From a candidate division FCPU426 bacterium (GTDB lineage: Bacteria; Oederibacteriota; Muellerivitia; Muellerivitales; Muellerivitaceae), in the NCBI GenBank assembly GCA_963847625.1, contig CAWKAR010000045.1, forward strand, positions 1 through 64,000: 64,000 bases of DNA, in the 5' to 3' direction. Positions 31 through 64,000 of the stretch are shown one piece after another. The notes beneath the pieces were generated by a model. That model did not search any database and had not been told where the DNA came from. It saw only the letters and a list, made by a program, of their open reading frames with translations. Both the position numbers and the translations under genes were made by a program. Every line of letters starts with the position of its first letter. The stretch's first letter is position 1.

Positions 31-268
31 TGCCCCGCAAATCTTTAAGGGAAGCATAAGGATTCGCGGGACTATACCAACTTCATTGTAATTTTCAGAA
101 GAGGAGAGTCGGCATGCGCCGATCATCCATAAAGAAATATTGAGATCGGTACTATACCGGCAACATTAAATGCTACAAGGAGAGTCGGCATGTGCCGATC
201 CTCTATAAAAATATATTGAGATGGGCATTATACCGGCAACATTAAATGCTTCAAGGAGAGTCGGCATG
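31..268 (+). repeat. Three tandem copies (84, 76, 76 bp) of a double-hairpin element joined by shared TG dinucleotides
   Basis: AGGAGAGTCGGCATG recurs at 102, 178 and 254. Each unit is TG-(hairpin 1)-TATACC...GGCA. The reverse complement matches the copies at 3594, 3851, 4033, 11344 and 15833. Confidence 0.85.
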
Positions 269-517
269 CGGTCGCAAATCATACAAATCGGCAATTCGAA
301 AGGCATACGGATTCCACGGCCCCTCTTGGAGCAGTGCCAGCTGGAGGATGAAGTCGAGTTGGAGGCCCAGCCCGGCCAACTCGTGGTGAGGCCGGTCGGC
401 GGACTCCGCCAGGGGTGGGCCGCGGCTTTTGAGAAGATGGCCCAATACGGCGACGACGGGTTGCTGGATGAGGGCGGTCCCGCGACCGAATGGTCCCGTA
501 AGGACTGGAAATGGTAA
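266..517 (+). CDS. mazE: AbrB/MazE/SpoVT-family antitoxin
   Basis: IIQIGNSKGIRIP AbrB-type N-terminus. ATG 266 follows AAGGAGAG. Overlaps the toxin gene. Confidence 0.9.
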   Translation: MRSQIIQIGNSKGIRIPRPLLEQCQLEDEVELEAQPGQLVVRPVGGLRQGWAAAFEKMAQYGDDGLLDEGGPATEWSRKDWKW

Positions 518-834
518 TCTCGCGTTTCGAGGTTCATTTGGTCCGGTTGGACCCCGCCGAGGGAAGCGAAATCAAAAAGACCAGGCCTTGCCTGGTCATC
601 TCCCCCGACGATATGAACCAATATATCCGGACAGTGATCGTAGCCCCCATGACGAGCAAGGGGAGGGATTACCCGACCCGCGTCCCGGTCGAATTCCAGG
701 GTAAACAGGGCCAGATCGTCCTGGACCAGATCCGAACCGTGGATAAGACCCGTCTCGTTAAAAAACTGGGTAAGATCGGTGACGCGACCTCGGAAAAGGT
801 ATTGAGGCTCCTCGGGGAAATGTTCGGGCCCTAA
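511..834 (+). CDS. mazF: PemK/MazF-family mRNA interferase toxin
   Basis: LDPAEGSEIKKTRPCLVIS...VAPMTS...DQIRTVDKTRL PemK motifs. Confidence 0.93.
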   Translation: MVISRFEVHLVRLDPAEGSEIKKTRPCLVISPDDMNQYIRTVIVAPMTSKGRDYPTRVPVEFQGKQGQIVLDQIRTVDKTRLVKKLGKIGDATSEKVLRLLGEMFGP

Positions 835-1019
835 GGAACAAAGTTGATGCTTTTCCAGGGTGTTCATTGGCCCCTTTTTCCTTCCATTATTCGGGCTGAA
901 AATACGGTTTAGGAAACCTTTTTCCTAATTTCTGCCTTTTTTTATGGCACTTTTTTAAACCCCCCTTTTAAAATTATCCCAATTGGCCGCCTAACCATAT
1001 GGTCGAAAAGGGCTTCAAA

Positions 1020-1091
1020 TTGAGGTCACAATTTGTGATTTCAAGATGGGGTTAAAGAGACTTCTTTAAGGTCACAAATTGTGACCTTAAA
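1020..1091. promoter_or_regulatory. Two related palindromic boxes (core TCACAA-N-TTGTGA), putative protein-binding sites
   Basis: TTGAGGTCACAA-T-TTGTGATTTCAA (1020-1044) and perfect TTTAAGGTCACAA-A-TTGTGACCTTAAA (1065-1091). Confidence 0.6.
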
Positions 1092-1104
1092 AGATAGCCC
1101 GATA

Positions 1105-1524
1105 CCCCAGTAGAAAGGGCCGGTAGACCCAGTAGACAAAGCCGGTGCCCCAGTAGACAAGGCCGGTAGACCCAGTAGACAAGGCCAGTACCCCGGTAGA
1201 AAGGGCCGGTAGACCCGGTAGACAAGGCCGGTACCCCAGTAGACAAGGCCAGTACCCCGGTAGAAAGGGCCGGTAGACCCGGTAGACAAGGCCGGTACCC
1301 CAGTAGACAAGGCCGGTAGACCCGGTAGACAAAGCCGGTACCCCAGTAGACAAGGCCGGTAGACCCGGTAGACAAAGCCGGTACCCCAGTAGACAAGGCC
1401 GGTAGACCCAGTAGACAAGGCCAGTACCCCGGTAGAAAGGGCCGGTAGACCCGGTAGACAAGGCCGGTACCCCAGTAGACAAGGCCGGTAGACCCGGTAG
1501 ACAAAGCCGGTACCCCAGTAGAAA
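1105..1524. repeat. Tandem array of 19 full plus one partial 21/22-bp units, iteron/centromere-like
   Basis: Mostly alternating CCCCAGTAGACAAGGCCGGTA (21 bp, 10 copies) and GACCCGGTAGACAAGGCCGGTA (22 bp, 9 copies) with minor variants; no unique spacers. Confidence 0.95.
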
Positions 1525-1536
1525 AAGGAGGATGCC

Positions 1537-3384
1537 TTGGCAGATCAAAAGCTTGATACTTTGGCATGGTTGGATAATTTGTCTGATTTGGAAGCCGAAC
1601 TTAAGAAAAACCCCTCTATCAATAGTGCTGATCTTATAAAAACCTTAAATCTCAGCAAATCGATGGTTTATTTCCTTTTAGCCATAAACAGTTGTTTTGA
1701 TCCGGTGGCGATAAAGAAGATTCGCGTGGCGGCAAAGGCTATCCCCATTTATGAACTTACTTTTAACAACGCCCGGGCTATAGGCAAATTGAAAGGTAAA
1801 GTGCCGGATCTGGATCTCCCTGAAGTGGTCCACGAGGTGCTGGATGTGACCATTTCCAAGCGATTGATCACCATTCAAATCGAGAGCCTGGTAGCCCATG
1901 TCATCAGCGGCAAACCGGCCAAGGATTTCAACCCCTCCCAGGCGCCAACCAGCCGCCCTAAAAAAGCCCCCAAGCTTAAACCTGAAAAGACCGAAAAAGC
2001 CCAAACGGCCTTGGACCAGCGGTTGGAGGAGGCCAAGGCCGGGGGTAAACCGCTGACCCTAGGAGAAAAGCTTGGATTGGCGGTTGAGGTATTACGAGGT
2101 GACGCCTCAAGCGGCCAAGAGGATGCTAAAACGGAGGCGGAACCTGATCCTGAAAAGCCCGCCCATACCAAGTCCAAGGGCTCAACGAACAGAATTTTGG
2201 TGTTCCTGGGAGGTTTTTTTGATATCACCCGGAAAGACTTTGAGGCCAGAAACTTGGGGGTGCTTAGCCGCAAAATCCTAATTGGGATTTTCAAAGCGAT
2301 TGGGCACTTAATAAAATGGCTCTTCAAAGTAATTTGGATTGTGATTAAATGGCCATTCAAGGAAGCTTGGTCCGTCGTGGGGAGGCCGGTAAAAAAGGTG
2401 GTTGCCTTGGCTATCCTTGCCGGCATCGTCCTTTATTTCTTCTTTCCCGCCAAATACCAGGCAGTGTATCAATTACTGAGGGAAAAAACCGTTCAAGCCG
2501 CCTATGGCGCCTATCACAGGCTATCCGAAATTCATAATTCATCATCCAAAATTCAAAATTCGGGCTCAATCGCGCCCGTTGAACCTTCCTCAATTCAAAA
2601 TTCATCATTCAAAATTCAAAATTCGGGGGCAACGGGCGCACCAGCGCCCACTGCCCCCGTTGCTTGGGATTTTTCCTTCGAATCCGAAACACAAAGGGAC
2701 AACGAACTATTTCCCATACCTGGTTACTGCATCATCAAGCCCATCCTTCCCCCGGTGGCGGGAATGGACGCGACGATGGCGGATAATCGGCTTGCCCTCC
2801 TACAGGATTCCCACAAGTATTCCGTCTGGTATGGGAATGACAGAGTGACCGTTGAATCAGTCACCGTAAATCCAACGTCCCTATCCTTGGCATTCATGGA
2901 TAAAGGAACGGCGTTGCTTAATTGGGACAACCTGAAGGCCATCCATTGCGACGAGATTCGGGTATACGCGAATAACAAGGAAAAGATTTTATACCAATGC
3001 GGGCTGGTGTCATCCAACCTTGAAAAGGCCGTCGAGGTCGAATGCCCCTCGCAGGAGAATTTCAACAGCCTGGTTTCGGCCCTACTCTATTGGGCCAAGA
3101 ACATCGCGCCTTCGGGCCTGCCTTACCTTCACCAGGGATTGGTACCCGATGACCTCGGGAAGGTCGGGGCGTTATGGGCCGGAAGCCCGGCGGACAAGGC
3201 GGGTATGGAATTAAGCGACGCGCTTTGGGGGGTGGACCGGGACGGCGTCCGCCAACAAAAACCCCTCGATGTGGTGCGCCGGTTGGACGCGCTCAAGCCT
3301 GGTAGGCATGGGATTTACGTGATCCGGGACGCGAAGGTGTCACCTAAAACGCCACGGATGAGGCTGGAAATAAACATACCATAA
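1537..3384 (+). CDS. Membrane-anchored protein: N-terminal ParB/Spo0J-like HTH region, amphipathic helix plus TM, C-terminal PDZ-like domain
   Basis: SADLIKTLNLSKSMVYFLLAI...LTFNNARAI...KRLITIQIESLV resembles the ParB HTH region. TM is VVALAILAGIVLYFFFP. GSPADKAGM is a PDZ-like motif. TTG start after AAGGAGG. Confidence 0.7.
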   Translation: MADQKLDTLAWLDNLSDLEAELKKNPSINSADLIKTLNLSKSMVYFLLAINSCFDPVAIKKIRVAAKAIPIYELTFNNARAIGKLKGKVPDLDLPEVVHEVLDVTISKRLITIQIESLVAHVISGKPAKDFNPSQAPTSRPKKAPKLKPEKTEKAQTALDQRLEEAKAGGKPLTLGEKLGLAVEVLRGDASSGQEDAKTEAEPDPEKPAHTKSKGSTNRILVFLGGFFDITRKDFEARNLGVLSRKILIGIFKAIGHLIKWLFKVIWIVIKWPFKEAWSVVGRPVKKVVALAILAGIVLYFFFPAKYQAVYQLLREKTVQAAYGAYHRLSEIHNSSSKIQNSGSIAPVEPSSIQNSSFKIQNSGATGAPAPTAPVAWDFSFESETQRDNELFPIPGYCIIKPILPPVAGMDATMADNRLALLQDSHKYSVWYGNDRVTVESVTVNPTSLSLAFMDKGTALLNWDNLKAIHCDEIRVYANNKEKILYQCGLVSSNLEKAVEVECPSQENFNSLVSALLYWAKNIAPSGLPYLHQGLVPDDLGKVGALWAGSPADKAGMELSDALWGVDRDGVRQQKPLDVVRRLDALKPGRHGIYVIRDAKVSPKTPRMRLEINIP

Positions 3385-3593
3385 AAAGAAATTTTGAATT
3401 TTAAATTGACGGCTTAAGCGAACCATTCTTAGCCACGGATTCAGGGGATTCATTTAGATGGCCGAAGGAAAAAGGCTTTAAATATTGGTGACTATACCTT
3501 TATGACACGTCAAGAATTTTATTTACCGCCGATAACGGCCGATTAACGCCGATAACAGCTTACAGCTTAAGGCTTTCCCAACTTATCGGCGTT

Positions 3594-3677
3594 CATGCCA
3601 CTTCACTATTGAAAGGATTTCAATTGAAAGTGGTATTGTCCCGCAATCCATTAACTTTTTTATGGAGATGCGGGACA
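3594..3677 (-). repeat. Double-hairpin element copy
   Basis: CATGCCACTT...AAGTGGTAT-T-GTCCCGCA...TGCGGGACA. Confidence 0.8.
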
Positions 3678-3850
3678 TCGGATTTGATCGGCGGTTCCAT
3701 GACTTTTTGCTTTTACTTGTTGTAAAGGGATACTTAAATTTTAAAGGTGACTACCTTCACGACACGTAAAGAAATTTTTTACCGCAGATAACGGCCGATT
3801 AACGCCGATAAAGGCTTAAAGTTTAAGGCTTTCTCAAACTTATCGGCGTC

Positions 3851-3934
3851 CATGCCACTTCACTATTGAAAGGATTTCTAATGAAAGTGGTATTGTCCCG
3901 CAATCCATTAACTCCTTTATGGAGATGCGGGACA
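3851..3934 (-). repeat. Double-hairpin element copy
   Basis: Near-identical to 3594-3677. Confidence 0.8.
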
Positions 3935-4032
3935 TCGGATTTGATCGGCGGTTACATGTCTTTTTGCTTTTGCTTGTTGAAAAGGGATACTTACCTTAAA
4001 TATTTATGTTTATAAATCCCATGAATCCCATG

Positions 4033-60637: not shown

Positions 60638-63600
60638 ATGAAACCGGTTGAACTCAATAAAAAATTTGGATTATTGAAAACGCTTTTTCAATTTAATTTC
60701 CGTTTCCGCTATGGATTTTTGTCCCTCCTGGTGGTTTCGTTTTGGCTGAATAACGTAACCTATTCATCCGCGCAGGTCATCCATACCGCGTCCACTTCCG
60801 CGATCGCGATCCCGACCTTGATAGCGACACCCCAGTTTTGCCCCAGCGACACTCAACAGATCTATCAGGAGAACCAGCCGACCTATTACACCCAACCGAC
60901 TCTAACCGCTTGCGGTTACCCCGTCGGCACTTACGATCCAAACTACTATGCGGCGATTGATAGTTATGATTTCGGGGACACATCTGCATCAGGAGGATCT
61001 GGCGGCGGCAAGGGAGGGGTTGTTTGCGGAGCCTGCGCGGCCTTGACGAACACCGCCAATGCCAGGGCATGTACTGTCATGATCGTTGATGAATGCCCGC
61101 AGGGAGGAAACAACGCTAATAACTGCTGGAATGGGTCTTACCACTTGGATATTTCCTCGACGGCATACAACTATTTGTCAAATAACGCAAGTTTCCCGAG
61201 CAACACTGATCAGACTGGCCGGGACAGCTCGACGGTTGAGTGGTGGTTTGTCCAATGCCCCTTAACCGGTCAGGGCGCCGTTACCTTTGACAACACGACA
61301 GGCAACATTGCTTATGAATGGGCCAACAGCGCATCCAGCGGCTGGAATCCTCTTATGTTTTTGGATACACTTATTCCAATTAAATCCGTGGCTTATGGCT
61401 CCAGTTCATCCGGGCCGTTCACTTCCATAAGCCGGGATACCGGCAGCAGTCTCCCAAATTTTTGGTACGGTAGCAGTGCCTTCTCGGGGACCGAATACTT
61501 CCAAATCACAAGCTGGGAATCGACTACCCCCGTCACGATCGGTGTGAACGCCAGTAGTTATACCCCGAGTGAAGCGGCGCCTCCGGGAAACCCATCCACT
61601 AGCGGACAGATGCTGGGTTGCAACGCAACACCGGTGGCCACCAACACATTCACCATTACCTACACGCCCACCATTACCTATACGTATACCTATACACGCA
61701 CCTTTACTTATACTTATACCTATACGTCAACCCCGACGTCCACGAGGTCGAATACACCGACCAATTCTCCCACCGTTTCGCCCACATCTACCGCTACACC
61801 CACAAAAACGAATTCGCCGACCGGCACGTCCACCAGTACGGTGACCAATACCCATACCAGCACCGCGACTAGGACCAATACGCAAACGAATACGGTTACC
61901 TCTACCGCCACTCCCACCTCAACCACCACAAGGACGAATACCCTGACCAATACGCCAACGAATACGGTTAGCGCTACTCCCACACGGACGAATTCACCCA
62001 CCAATACAATTACGATTACGCCGACGAATACCCAGACGAATACGGCCACGAATACAGCGACTACTTCACCCACCGCAACGAGGACAAATACGCCTACCAC
62101 TTCGCCTACGAATACGGCGACAACTTCAGCGACCCCCACTCGAACGAATTCGCCCACCAATACTGCCACGATTACGCCGACGAATACTTTGACTAATACC
62201 CCTATAAATACGGTGACATCCACGTCAACCGCAACAAGGACGAATACTTTGACCAATACCCCTGTAAATACGGCGACGTCCACGTCAACCGCAACAAGGA
62301 CAAATACGGCGACCAATACGTTTACGGCCACGCCGACGAATACTTTGACTAATACCCCTGTAAATACGGCGACGTCCACGTCAACTACAACAAGGACGAA
62401 TACGGCGACCAATACGTTTACGGCCACGCCGACGAATACTTTGACCAATACACCCGTAAATACGGGGACGTCCACGTCAACCGCAACAAGGACGAATACA
62501 GCGACCAATACCCCTGTAAATACGGCGACGTCCACGTCAACCGCAACAAGGACAAATACGGCGACCAATACGTTTACGGCCACGCCGACGAATACTTTGA
62601 CTAATACCCCTGTAAATACGGCGACGTCCACGTCAACTACAACAAGGACGAATACGGCGACCAATACGTTTACGGCCACGCCGACGAATACTTTGACTAA
62701 TACCCCTGTAAATACGGCGACGTCCACGTCAACTACAACAAGGACGAATACGCCGACAGTGACTTCTACGGCAACCAATACCAACACGGGAACCACTTCA
62801 CCTACGCCGACTTTCACGATCACCTCAACAAGTACGCAAACTCCAACATCGACAAGGACGAACACATCCACCAATACGCCCACGAATACGGCTACATCCA
62901 CGCTTACCCCGACAAGAACGAACACGCTGACCAACACGCCGACAGTTACGCTCACCTACACCCCGACGATGACGCCAACGGCAACCGATACCACTACGGG
63001 AACCACTTCACCCACGCCGACTTTCACGATCACCTCAACAAGTACGCAAACTCCAACATCGACAAGGACGAACACATCCACCAATACGCCCACGAATACG
63101 GCTACATCCACGCTTACCCCGACAAGAACGAACACGCTGACCAACACGCCGACAGTTACGCCCACCTACACCCCGACGATGACGCCAACGGCAACCGATA
63201 CCACCACGGGAACCACTTCGCCCACGCCGACTTTCACGATCACCTCAACCAGTACGCAAACTCCAACATCGACAAGGACGAACACATCCACCAATACGCC
63301 CACGAATACGGCTACATCCACGCTTACCCCGACAAGGACGAACACTCTGACCAACACGCCGACGGCGACGATCACTCATACCCCGACGATGACGCCAACG
63401 GCAACCGATACCACTACGGGAACCACTTCGCCCACGCCGACTTATACGATCACCTCAACCAGTACGCAAACTCCAACATCGACAAGGACGAACACATCCA
63501 CTAATACGCCCACAAATACGGCTACATCCACGCTTACCCCGACAAGAACGAACACTCTGACCAACACGCCGACGGCGACGATCACTCATACCCCGACGAT

Positions 63601-64000
63601 GACGCCAACGGCAACCGATACCACCACGGGAACCACTTCGCCCACGCCGACTTTCACGATCACCTCAACCAGTACGCAAACTCCAACATCGACAAGGACG
63701 AACACATCCACCAATACGCCCACGAATACGGCTACATCCACGCTTACCCCGACAAGGACGAACACTCTGACCAACACGCCGACGGCGACGATCACTCATA
63801 CCCCGACGATGACGCCAACGGCAACCGATACCACTACGGGAACCACTTCACCCACGCCGACTTTCACGATCACCTCAACAAGTACGCAAACTCCAACATC
63901 GACAAGGACGAACACATCCACCAATACGCCCACGAATACGGCTACATCCACGCTTACCCCGACAAGGACGAACACTCTGACCAACACACCGACGGCGACG
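60638..64000 (+). CDS. Secreted expansin-like protein (DPBB + CBM63-like) with a very long Thr-rich stalk; 3' end beyond the window
   Basis: Manual translation from ATG 60638: signal-like segment, PTYY...ACGY...YAAI...CGAC...TVMIVDECP...HLDISSTAY...VEWWFVQCP, then TxT repeats. No stop seen to 64000. Confidence 0.85.
62770..64000 (+). repeat. 210-bp (70-aa) intragenic tandem repeat, nearly six copies, preceded by 96/60-bp repeats (~62180-62750)
   Basis: GGGAACCACTTC at 62788, 62998, 63208, 63418, 63628 and 63838. Confidence 0.95.

Follow-up and report, generated by a model that had tools for sequence, protein, structure and literature searches.

A ParB-derived, predicted membrane protein and the phased direct-repeat array ahead of its gene in a candidate division FCPU426 bacterium

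The window analyzed here is the first 64 kb of contig CAWKAR010000045.1 (C45) from a candidate division FCPU426 bacterium, whose genome (G000) comprises 4.43 Mb and is 94% complete. Near its start, a gene for a 615-residue protein is preceded by an array of helically phased direct repeats, and upstream of the array lie a mazEF pair, a T-rich non-coding stretch and two palindromic boxes. A preliminary description of this DNA had joined all five features into one module for DNA–membrane tethering or signaling. The three upstream features are present as claimed, as seen from Pfam matches, base composition and the box coordinates. However, the unit has only two parts, the array and the gene, and the other three features do not belong to it. 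The parts of the unit are:

1107–1525, + strand: phased direct-repeat array, 20 non-palindromic CCRGTAGAMA cores at 21/22-bp spacing; predicted cognate binding site
1526–1531, + strand: Shine-Dalgarno sequence AGGAGG, preceding a TTG start that is consistent with 26 aligned homologues
1537–3384, + strand: 615-aa gene, with a CTPase-less ParB-type DNA-binding domain, a long linker, a transmembrane helix, and PH-like and PDZ domains
1537–1956, + strand: ParB/Noc-type DNA-binding domain, residues 1–140 (helix-turn-helix (HTH) at about 30–53), from AF2, Foldseek, VIA and hhalign
2389–2445, + strand: predicted transmembrane helix, residues 285–303, hydropathy 2.2
2770–3120, + strand: predicted PH-like domain, about residues 412–528, probably extracytoplasmic, from AF2 and VIA
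3124–3381, + strand: predicted HtrA/Ctp-type PDZ domain, at about residues 530–615, from VIA and Foldseek

The array holds 20 copies of an 11-bp core, the first starting at 1107 and the last at 1515. Their spacing is exclusively 21 or 22 bp (mean 21.47), a pitch of two helical turns at 10.7 bp per turn. The preliminary description had counted 19.5 repeats of 21/22 bp whose last unit enters the Shine-Dalgarno sequence; indeed, the final core merges into the AGGAGG ribosome-binding site ahead of the TTG at 1537. In 2000 base shuffles of the stretch, at most one core was found in each, and TRF reported the array as 43 bp × 9.7. The same core also occurs in orphan arrays at C27:278501, C25:182147 and C24:93365 of this genome. 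A promoter and terminator scan of the locus gave results at chance level. Conserved cores with variable linkers, co-oriented with transcription, might also be expected if the arrays worked through their RNA, serving as a guide or scaffold, instead of as sites on DNA. We consider this extremely improbable: the array RNA folded no better than shuffles (z −0.64), no Rfam match came near threshold, the spacing tracks the DNA helix, and the sites of ancestral-type genes (see below) are palindromic, the form that a dimer binding double-stranded DNA would call for.

A Pfam scan of the 615-residue product returned nothing above noise (best match HTH_24, E 0.11), and 153 relatives were found among 1.84 billion cluster representatives. 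A search of genome contigs using the single protein gave no confirmed relative, a profile of the N-terminal DNA-binding domain (the head) had no match among solved-structure sequences, and viral contigs yielded one 18-residue match, which we took as chance. The AF2 model of residues 1–140, built from 27 sequences, had a pLDDT of 83.5. With this model, ranks 1–11 in Foldseek were all Noc, ParB or Spo0J (E 0.04–0.15), and VIA placed ParB (Z 7.8, rmsd 3.2, 97 aligned), KorB and Spo0J first. In the ESM Atlas, residues 1–140 matched unnamed clusters at 0.91–0.92 and a cluster named ParB-HTH at 0.88, which we treated as a lead only. The structure scores are modest alone; a homology chain through longer relatives closes the gap. 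By hhalign, the head matched these long forms (P 99.5), and the long forms matched Noc (E 2e-24), Spo0J (E 4e-22) and the genome's own canonical ParB (P 99.3). On these alignments the family descends from the ParB/Noc/KorB superfamily, its head being homologous to the ParB DNA-binding domain, and the ParB-like HTH proposed at first sight was correctly recognized.

The window protein begins at the DNA-binding head and thus lacks the CTPase domain; no PF02195 match exists at the locus. It has no N-terminal hydrophobic stretch, which suggests that the head is cytoplasmic and the PH-like and PDZ domains lie outside. Nor does it carry a Noc-type N-terminal amphipathic, CTP-controlled helix, the predicted membrane contact being the internal helix. 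The positive-inside count favored the head-in orientation in five of eight paralogs, was even in two, including the window protein, and was reversed in one. The AF2 model of the C-terminal part (pLDDT 88.6) showed a PH-like fold followed by a PDZ domain. In VIA, the former matched PH-fold domains (Z 8.8–9.0, rmsd 2.3–2.9, about 100 aligned) and the latter scored Z 9.9 (rmsd 2.4, 78 aligned), with a Foldseek E of 5e-5; relatives gave weak Pfam PDZ matches. The transmembrane and PDZ parts of the preliminary description are hence supported as predictions. Across the family, the helix is present in 35 of 39 members (of the other four, two are truncated and two borderline), and five members stop within about 50 residues after it. 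Members in G016 have no PH/PDZ part, and some others carry different C-termini. The constant part of the family, as judged from these sequences, is the head plus the membrane helix; with the C-terminus variable, tethering is favored over sensing, and the periplasmic signaling suggested earlier is weakened.

The window genome encodes seven intact paralogs with a head and one head-less paralog. Each of the seven is preceded by a different array, three of which are split or displaced by insertion sequence (IS) elements. Searching with the head profile, we found short forms (CTPase-less, high-scoring) in nine of 31 family genomes, from six genera, with weaker matches in eight more. Among 68 further genomes of the phylum, matches occurred in three, all weak (G029, a long form, and G076 and G078). 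The short forms make up one clade in a quick tree (SH-aLRT 98), in which paralogs often cluster by genome or genus.

To detect arrays, we looked for chains of phased 8-mers in the 700 bases upstream of every start. Each of the 41 short-form genes examined in the nine genomes is preceded by a phased array of its own, and these arrays mostly differ from one another. The detector reported chains of 5–23 for 33 of 34 short forms in the eight relatives and for six of seven in the window genome, and the two genes it missed also bear arrays: that of L048 (15 × 33-bp) was filtered out by the detector, and that on C13 lies beyond an IS110 element. By contrast, none of 26 CTPase-bearing long forms reached a chain of four. 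Two of 150 random upstream regions reached five, none of 34 regions downstream of short forms exceeded three, and the head-less paralog has no array. The periods found in the family are 21, 22, 33, 42–43 and 52–53 bp, and the cores are non-palindromic words of 9–11 bp. Arrays ahead of the homologues, anticipated in the preliminary description, were thus present in 41 of 41 cases. Excision between flanking arrays was rejected, as there are no downstream arrays.

The genes next to the family were surveyed for recurring partners. No adjacent ParA was found: C45 has no PF13614 match, and none was seen among the neighbors of 39 loci, those above 250 aa being read by their N-termini alone. There was no universal partner gene, and no integrase or recombinase recurred beside family genes. 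An outer-membrane β-barrel gene (weak PF13505) recurs solely in the window's genus, after several paralogs (G000:C3:25017-25736, C3:21423-22136, C37:1950-2654 and C34:103736-104443; L030). IS elements have landed repeatedly in or beside arrays (G000:C45:75068-76285, C34:107656-108845, C13:3892-4992 and C35:7232-8421; L095 and L099).

A de novo scan of the window genome yielded 64 phased blocks; three were dropped as unrelated and the rest merged into 40 loci. Seven of these lie ahead of family genes, one is a probable continuation across a contig end, and 32 are orphans. The loci are on chromosomal contigs, beside housekeeping genes, and many orphan loci stack several array types in a single orientation. 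When nine orphan arrays were anchored on five bases, the rest of the 11-bp core was nearly invariant, linkers varied and most units were distinct; this conservation also holds for array types for which no gene was found. Pattern searches of the 31 genomes detected multi-unit arrays in G000, G001, G019, G022, G023 and G043, all with short forms. One match came from G011, and single matches with the loosest pattern in three other genomes were at control level. Consistently, G002, with long forms alone, contained no blocks in 740 kb, versus six true blocks in 400 kb of G001, which has short forms. About six orphans of relatives adjoin the same genes as orphans of the window genome, two of them across genera, with differing units. 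Array orientation agrees with local GC skew at 26 of 35 loci and with the local coding strand at 25 of 35. A tie between array orientation and replication was not accepted, the skew seeming to be driven by gene content.

ToxR/CadC regulators combine a cytoplasmic DNA-binding head of the winged-helix kind with one membrane helix and an outside domain, and act at one or a few operators. The family has the same head–membrane helix–outside domain layout, by predicted topology, and might accordingly be read as a membrane one-component regulator whose PDZ domain senses envelope stress while the head controls array-adjacent genes. The HtrA/DegS-like PDZ fold (predicted), the barrel gene after several copies in the window's genus, and arrays that overlap or adjoin the gene's ribosome-binding site would fit. 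We nevertheless judge this unlikely. The head is of the ParB type, and the outside domain is dispensable in some members: those that end past the helix or have other C-termini retain their arrays. Orphan arrays lie between divergent genes in 4 of 31 cases, versus 104 of 454 background gaps (with a crude gene caller), and their flanking genes have no evident common function. Arrays of 5–30 copies would also far exceed the need of an operator.

If heads recognize their own arrays, site and protein should vary together. We compared 37 protein–array pairs, having dropped L028, L035 and L064 as near-copies or broken; L063 was unused. Over 535 cross-genus pairs, motif similarity correlated with HTH similarity (rho 0.24, or 0.22 as a partial correlation controlling for the rest of the domain; p 0.0005, from permutations that ignore kinship) and less with the rest of the domain (rho 0.17; partial 0.15). 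The top co-varying columns include residues 30, 34, 41, 46 and 76, in or near the DNA-contacting helices of ParB, for which contacts through the recognition helix plus a second helix are reported (PMC7383237).

A separate line of support for a link between site and protein comes from the long forms, which represent the ancestral type. Of 24 scanned among the 26, 21 match PF02195 (ParB_N), 15 of them over the cut-off; the GxxR motif is kept, and most have a membrane helix. We looked for palindromes within 25 long-form genes, five of which could not be anchored. Of the 20 anchored, 11 have a palindrome matching at 8/9 or 9/9 positions, always at the same homologous codon, versus 12 of 763 control windows. 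The palindromes are mostly mutually different and lie just after the HTH, at a short insertion relative to Noc; three genes hold 2–4 copies exactly 42 bp apart. Because these ancestral-type genes hold private palindromes, some of them 42 bp apart, the sequences suggest that sites of this kind, self-addressed, quick to diverge and helically spaced, existed before the arrays did. A resemblance of the palindrome half-sites to short-form cores was rejected (p 0.69). The feature list for this group is:

L029, L053, L055, L056, L058, L059, L066, L067, L069, L070, L073, L078, L079, L120 and L121: orphan ParB_N-HTH genes with an in-frame private palindrome

We lean towards a reading in which every paralog, by binding its arrays, shuts down its own expression and holds many loci at the inner membrane, multiplied sites having taken the place of CTP-driven spreading. 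That the protein binds its own array is very likely, and that it holds the bound DNA at the membrane is probable; nucleoid organization as the selected purpose is plausible, though we hold it with slightly more doubt than belief. In this scheme, the ParB/Noc-type head of an inner-membrane protein would grip the 11-bp cores of its own array, perhaps one head per core. Since membrane-held proteins would reach only one face of the helix, two-turn spacing would let a row of them engage the DNA together. Sister arrays elsewhere on the chromosome would likewise be pinned to the membrane. Binding over the ribosome-binding site and upstream region would repress the gene itself, as StbA does at phased repeats. 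A clamp-less protein could not spread, so its occupancy would have to come from many sites, which would substitute for CTP-driven loading and spreading from one site. The cell might benefit through a Noc- or RacA-like effect on nucleoid position.

Several known systems share parts of this scheme. Noc is a nucleoid occlusion protein that blocks division over the DNA it recruits. Noc recruits chromosomal DNA to the membrane (PMC4331003) and builds its membrane complex by CTP-dependent association with DNA beside a 16-bp NBS site (PMC8429893); its anchor is a weak N-terminal amphipathic helix under a CTP switch (PMC4331003, PMC8429893). Similar to Noc of Bacillus and Geobacillus (PDB 7nfu, 7ol9, 6y93), as far as described there, the family is a ParB-derived orphan with a homologous DNA-binding domain and scattered chromosomal sites, and is predicted to bring DNA to the membrane. 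Unlike Noc, it is predicted to be anchored by a genuine transmembrane helix and to have a domain outside, it lacks the CTPase, its sites are non-palindromic tandem arrays, and it comprises many paralogs with different sites. ParB/Spo0J–parS (ParABS) and KorB, SopB and VirB have the same HTH-plus-helical-bundle head, and the long forms keep ParB_N and a palindromic site. The short forms differ in having no CTPase, no ParA partner, a membrane helix, and a site private to each paralog. No parS-type palindromic site is present at the locus: the cores are non-palindromic direct repeats and the nearby palindromes are boxes of the ORF6N kind discussed below. With neither CTPase, ParA nor parS, the window protein, ParB-descended by sequence and Noc-like in its proposed working, is not classed as a member of those systems. 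The window genome keeps a separate canonical parAB. A second, divergent parA–parB pair lies at G000:C55:26717-28745, on a 36-kb contig that is possibly a plasmid or integrated element.

RacA–ram of B. subtilis sporulation is a DNA–membrane tether with many chromosomal sites, the likeness we propose for the family; RacA, which is not known to be related to ParB, is brought to the pole by DivIVA. StbA of plasmid R388 is reported to bind helically phased repeats (stbS) upstream of its own gene and to repress it, with no NTPase and with further repeat clusters elsewhere (10.1101/2022.04.29.490116). Like StbA–stbS and centromeres of the ParR–parC and TubR–tubC types, the family places phased direct repeats beside the gene of the (here predicted) binding protein. 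StbA, as described there, is PadR-like, has an 11-bp cycle and is plasmid-borne, whereas the family is ParB-derived, integral to the membrane by prediction, chromosomal and multi-paralog; the word 'membrane' is absent from the main text of the StbA paper (10.1101/2022.04.29.490116).

A number of observations weigh against the tethering reading. The short forms being one clade, the contrast between 41 short forms with arrays and 0 of 26 long forms is, on the tree, one evolutionary event and not 41. The co-variation is modest, extends to the rest of the domain and was assessed with kinship ignored. When residues were tested against bases in 33 of the pairs (leaving out the four 43-bp types as well; the automatic motif frame mis-registered some rows), residue 46 came top by summed score and nothing survived correction (p 0.145). 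Of the co-variation of the array with the recognition helix that the preliminary description had envisaged, the HTH correlation therefore stands, modestly, and a pairing of single residues with bases does not. The positive-inside count of the window protein itself is even, 3 versus 3. For about seven array types of the window genome, no gene was found. In the 99% complete G011, arrays with well-kept cores lie at L109 and L119, and the matches found there are to long forms alone. Orphan orientation is that of the upstream gene in 25 of 32 cases, and no flip of array orientation occurs at dnaA in G001 (on C4). Two orphan arrays are directly followed by a 5′-truncated barrel gene; as this gene is otherwise associated with paralogs, those arrays are relics. 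Finally, the short form is distributed patchily (in nine of the 31 family genomes), its genes lie among those of toxin–antitoxin systems and IS elements, and there are several broken copies, as would suit an accessory or selfish cassette.

Such a cassette would be a self-regulating accessory unit that duplicates into operon ends, diverges and dies. It would bind its array, the membrane link serving the cassette itself, for persistence or as a defense switch released on loss of the host array, and the orphans would mostly be relics or titration sinks. Besides the patchy, multi-copy distribution, the grouping of paralogs by genome or genus and the broken copies, it would account for the toxin–antitoxin, ORF6N and IS neighbors, the two orphan arrays with relic partner genes, the reader-less arrays of G011 and the co-orientation of arrays with the upstream gene. 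We regard it as rather unlikely, because orphan cores are kept while linkers drift, none of 20 orphan loci of relatives holds a family remnant, and several orphans have the same gene neighbors in two genomes, with units that differ between the two. Moreover, there is neither a recurrent integrase or recombinase nor a downstream array. The tethering reading also has a bolder extension, which we find doubtful: membrane ParB clamps that each read a palindrome in their own gene would have given rise to a clamp-less clade in which amplified phased arrays stand in for spreading, a satellite-DNA library with co-evolving membrane readers in which each duplication makes a new reader–repeat pair. The chromosome would then be fastened to the membrane in about 40 programmable places by a motor-free tether in the style of Jacob, Brenner and Cuzin, an orthogonal anchor kit.

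The idea that integral membrane proteins anchor bacterial chromosomes directly and sequence-specifically is an old one, for which, to our knowledge, there are few dedicated examples; Noc is peripheral and CTP-gated. Our literature search found no description of a system of an array with a membrane ParB-type protein. The main text of a 2025 survey of ParB folds (PMC12704722) contains neither 'transmembrane' nor 'PDZ', though fusions of this kind could be listed in its supplements. What the present analysis adds is the paralog library, the array census across the genome, the contrast of long with short forms, and the internal palindromes of the ancestors. If the tethering reading is right, a ParB lineage swapped its CTP clamp for multiplied sites, and the purpose of spreading becomes testable by comparing long and short forms. 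The about 40 natural protein–site pairs, together with the long-form palindromes, are a data set on ParB specificity beyond ParB and Noc, and the family is a possible toolkit of orthogonal DNA–membrane tethers. The expansion of long ParB_N-HTH forms, many with a membrane helix and a palindrome inside their own DNA-binding domain, is a finding in itself.

The remaining features of the locus, upstream of the array, are:

266–834, + strand: mazE–mazF pair, a passenger at an insertion hot spot, not conserved beside homologues
871–1001, + strand: T-rich tract, a bystander, being the leader of an ORF6N cassette that lacks its gene here; 94.7% identical to C34:110330-110460
1020–1091, no strand: two palindromic ORF6N boxes, a bystander

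MazE (266–517) matches PF04014 just under the cut-off (E 4e-5), and MazF (511–834) matches PF02452 (E 6e-31). No MazF was present among the 114 of 139 small neighbors scanned at 37 family loci; other toxin–antitoxin types lie near about 11 of the 37 and at the C34 locus. By these comparisons mazEF is a passenger. Between 870 and 980, T makes up 42% and A+T 63% of the bases, and the boxes lie at 1020–1044 and 1065–1091. The related tract on C34 sits upstream of an ORF6N gene, and a similar one precedes the ORF6N gene of L031. Genome-wide there are eight such boxes, six in or just before two ORF6N (PF10543) genes and two in the window. The order on C34 is tract, boxes, ORF6N, array, paralog; that of the window is identical minus ORF6N. 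The tract and boxes of the window are, on this evidence, a left-over ORF6N leader. The five-part module thus fell apart, with no MazF neighbor at the other scanned loci and with tract and palindromes belonging to the ORF6N cassette. Additionally, the two ORF6N genes (G000:C21:19156-19600 and C34:109402-110080) have a box both in the leader and within the coding sequence, self-addressed like the long ParB forms, and an ORF6N-type box also lies ahead of the long forms L078 and L079.

With its iteron-like repeats, T-rich stretch and toxin–antitoxin pair in series, the locus had taken on the flavor of an origin of replication or a centromere, belonging to a plasmid or integrated element whose addiction module would be mazEF. 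NTPase-free partition through upstream direct repeats is known from StbA (10.1101/2022.04.29.490116). We nonetheless consider this very improbable, and the plasmid view did not hold: the gene is one of seven chromosomal paralogs, the 40 array loci with their 32 orphans are chromosomal and lie beside housekeeping genes, no match was found in 72,556 plasmid records, and the tract and boxes belong to ORF6N. The absence of ParA from the window, noted at the outset, was confirmed, with no PF13614 or ParB_N match on C45; Rep families were not searched one by one.

Positions 30–954 of the window are 99.6% identical to the end of contig C63 (G000:C63:93586-94509), and the join from mazEF to the array may therefore be a duplicated or ambiguously assembled stretch. 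On C63, a family gene and the barrel gene are present as fragments upstream of the mazEF copy. Up to the mazE start, positions 102–270 hold a 76-bp unit in 2.2 copies, with similar stretches at dozens of genome sites.

Other observations concern the gene and its surroundings. In the database gene calls P0001 and P0006, the window protein is begun at residue 43, which cuts the HTH, and the N-terminus of a homologue is run through its array. The linker region of the gene contains AATTCAA heptamer repeats (2524–2632), and the same tracts are dispersed through the genome. In G042 (C1:179632, C3:102567, C18:86617, C11:543196 and others), PH-like plus PDZ domains occur in further proteins of 205–1205 aa. 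Downstream of the gene, positions 3495–3993 are AT-rich non-coding DNA with a 257-bp tandem duplication containing inverted repeats. At the far end of the window, positions 61657–64000 consist of nested coding repeats of the Thr/Pro type, with periods of 24–252 bp, that extend past the window end.

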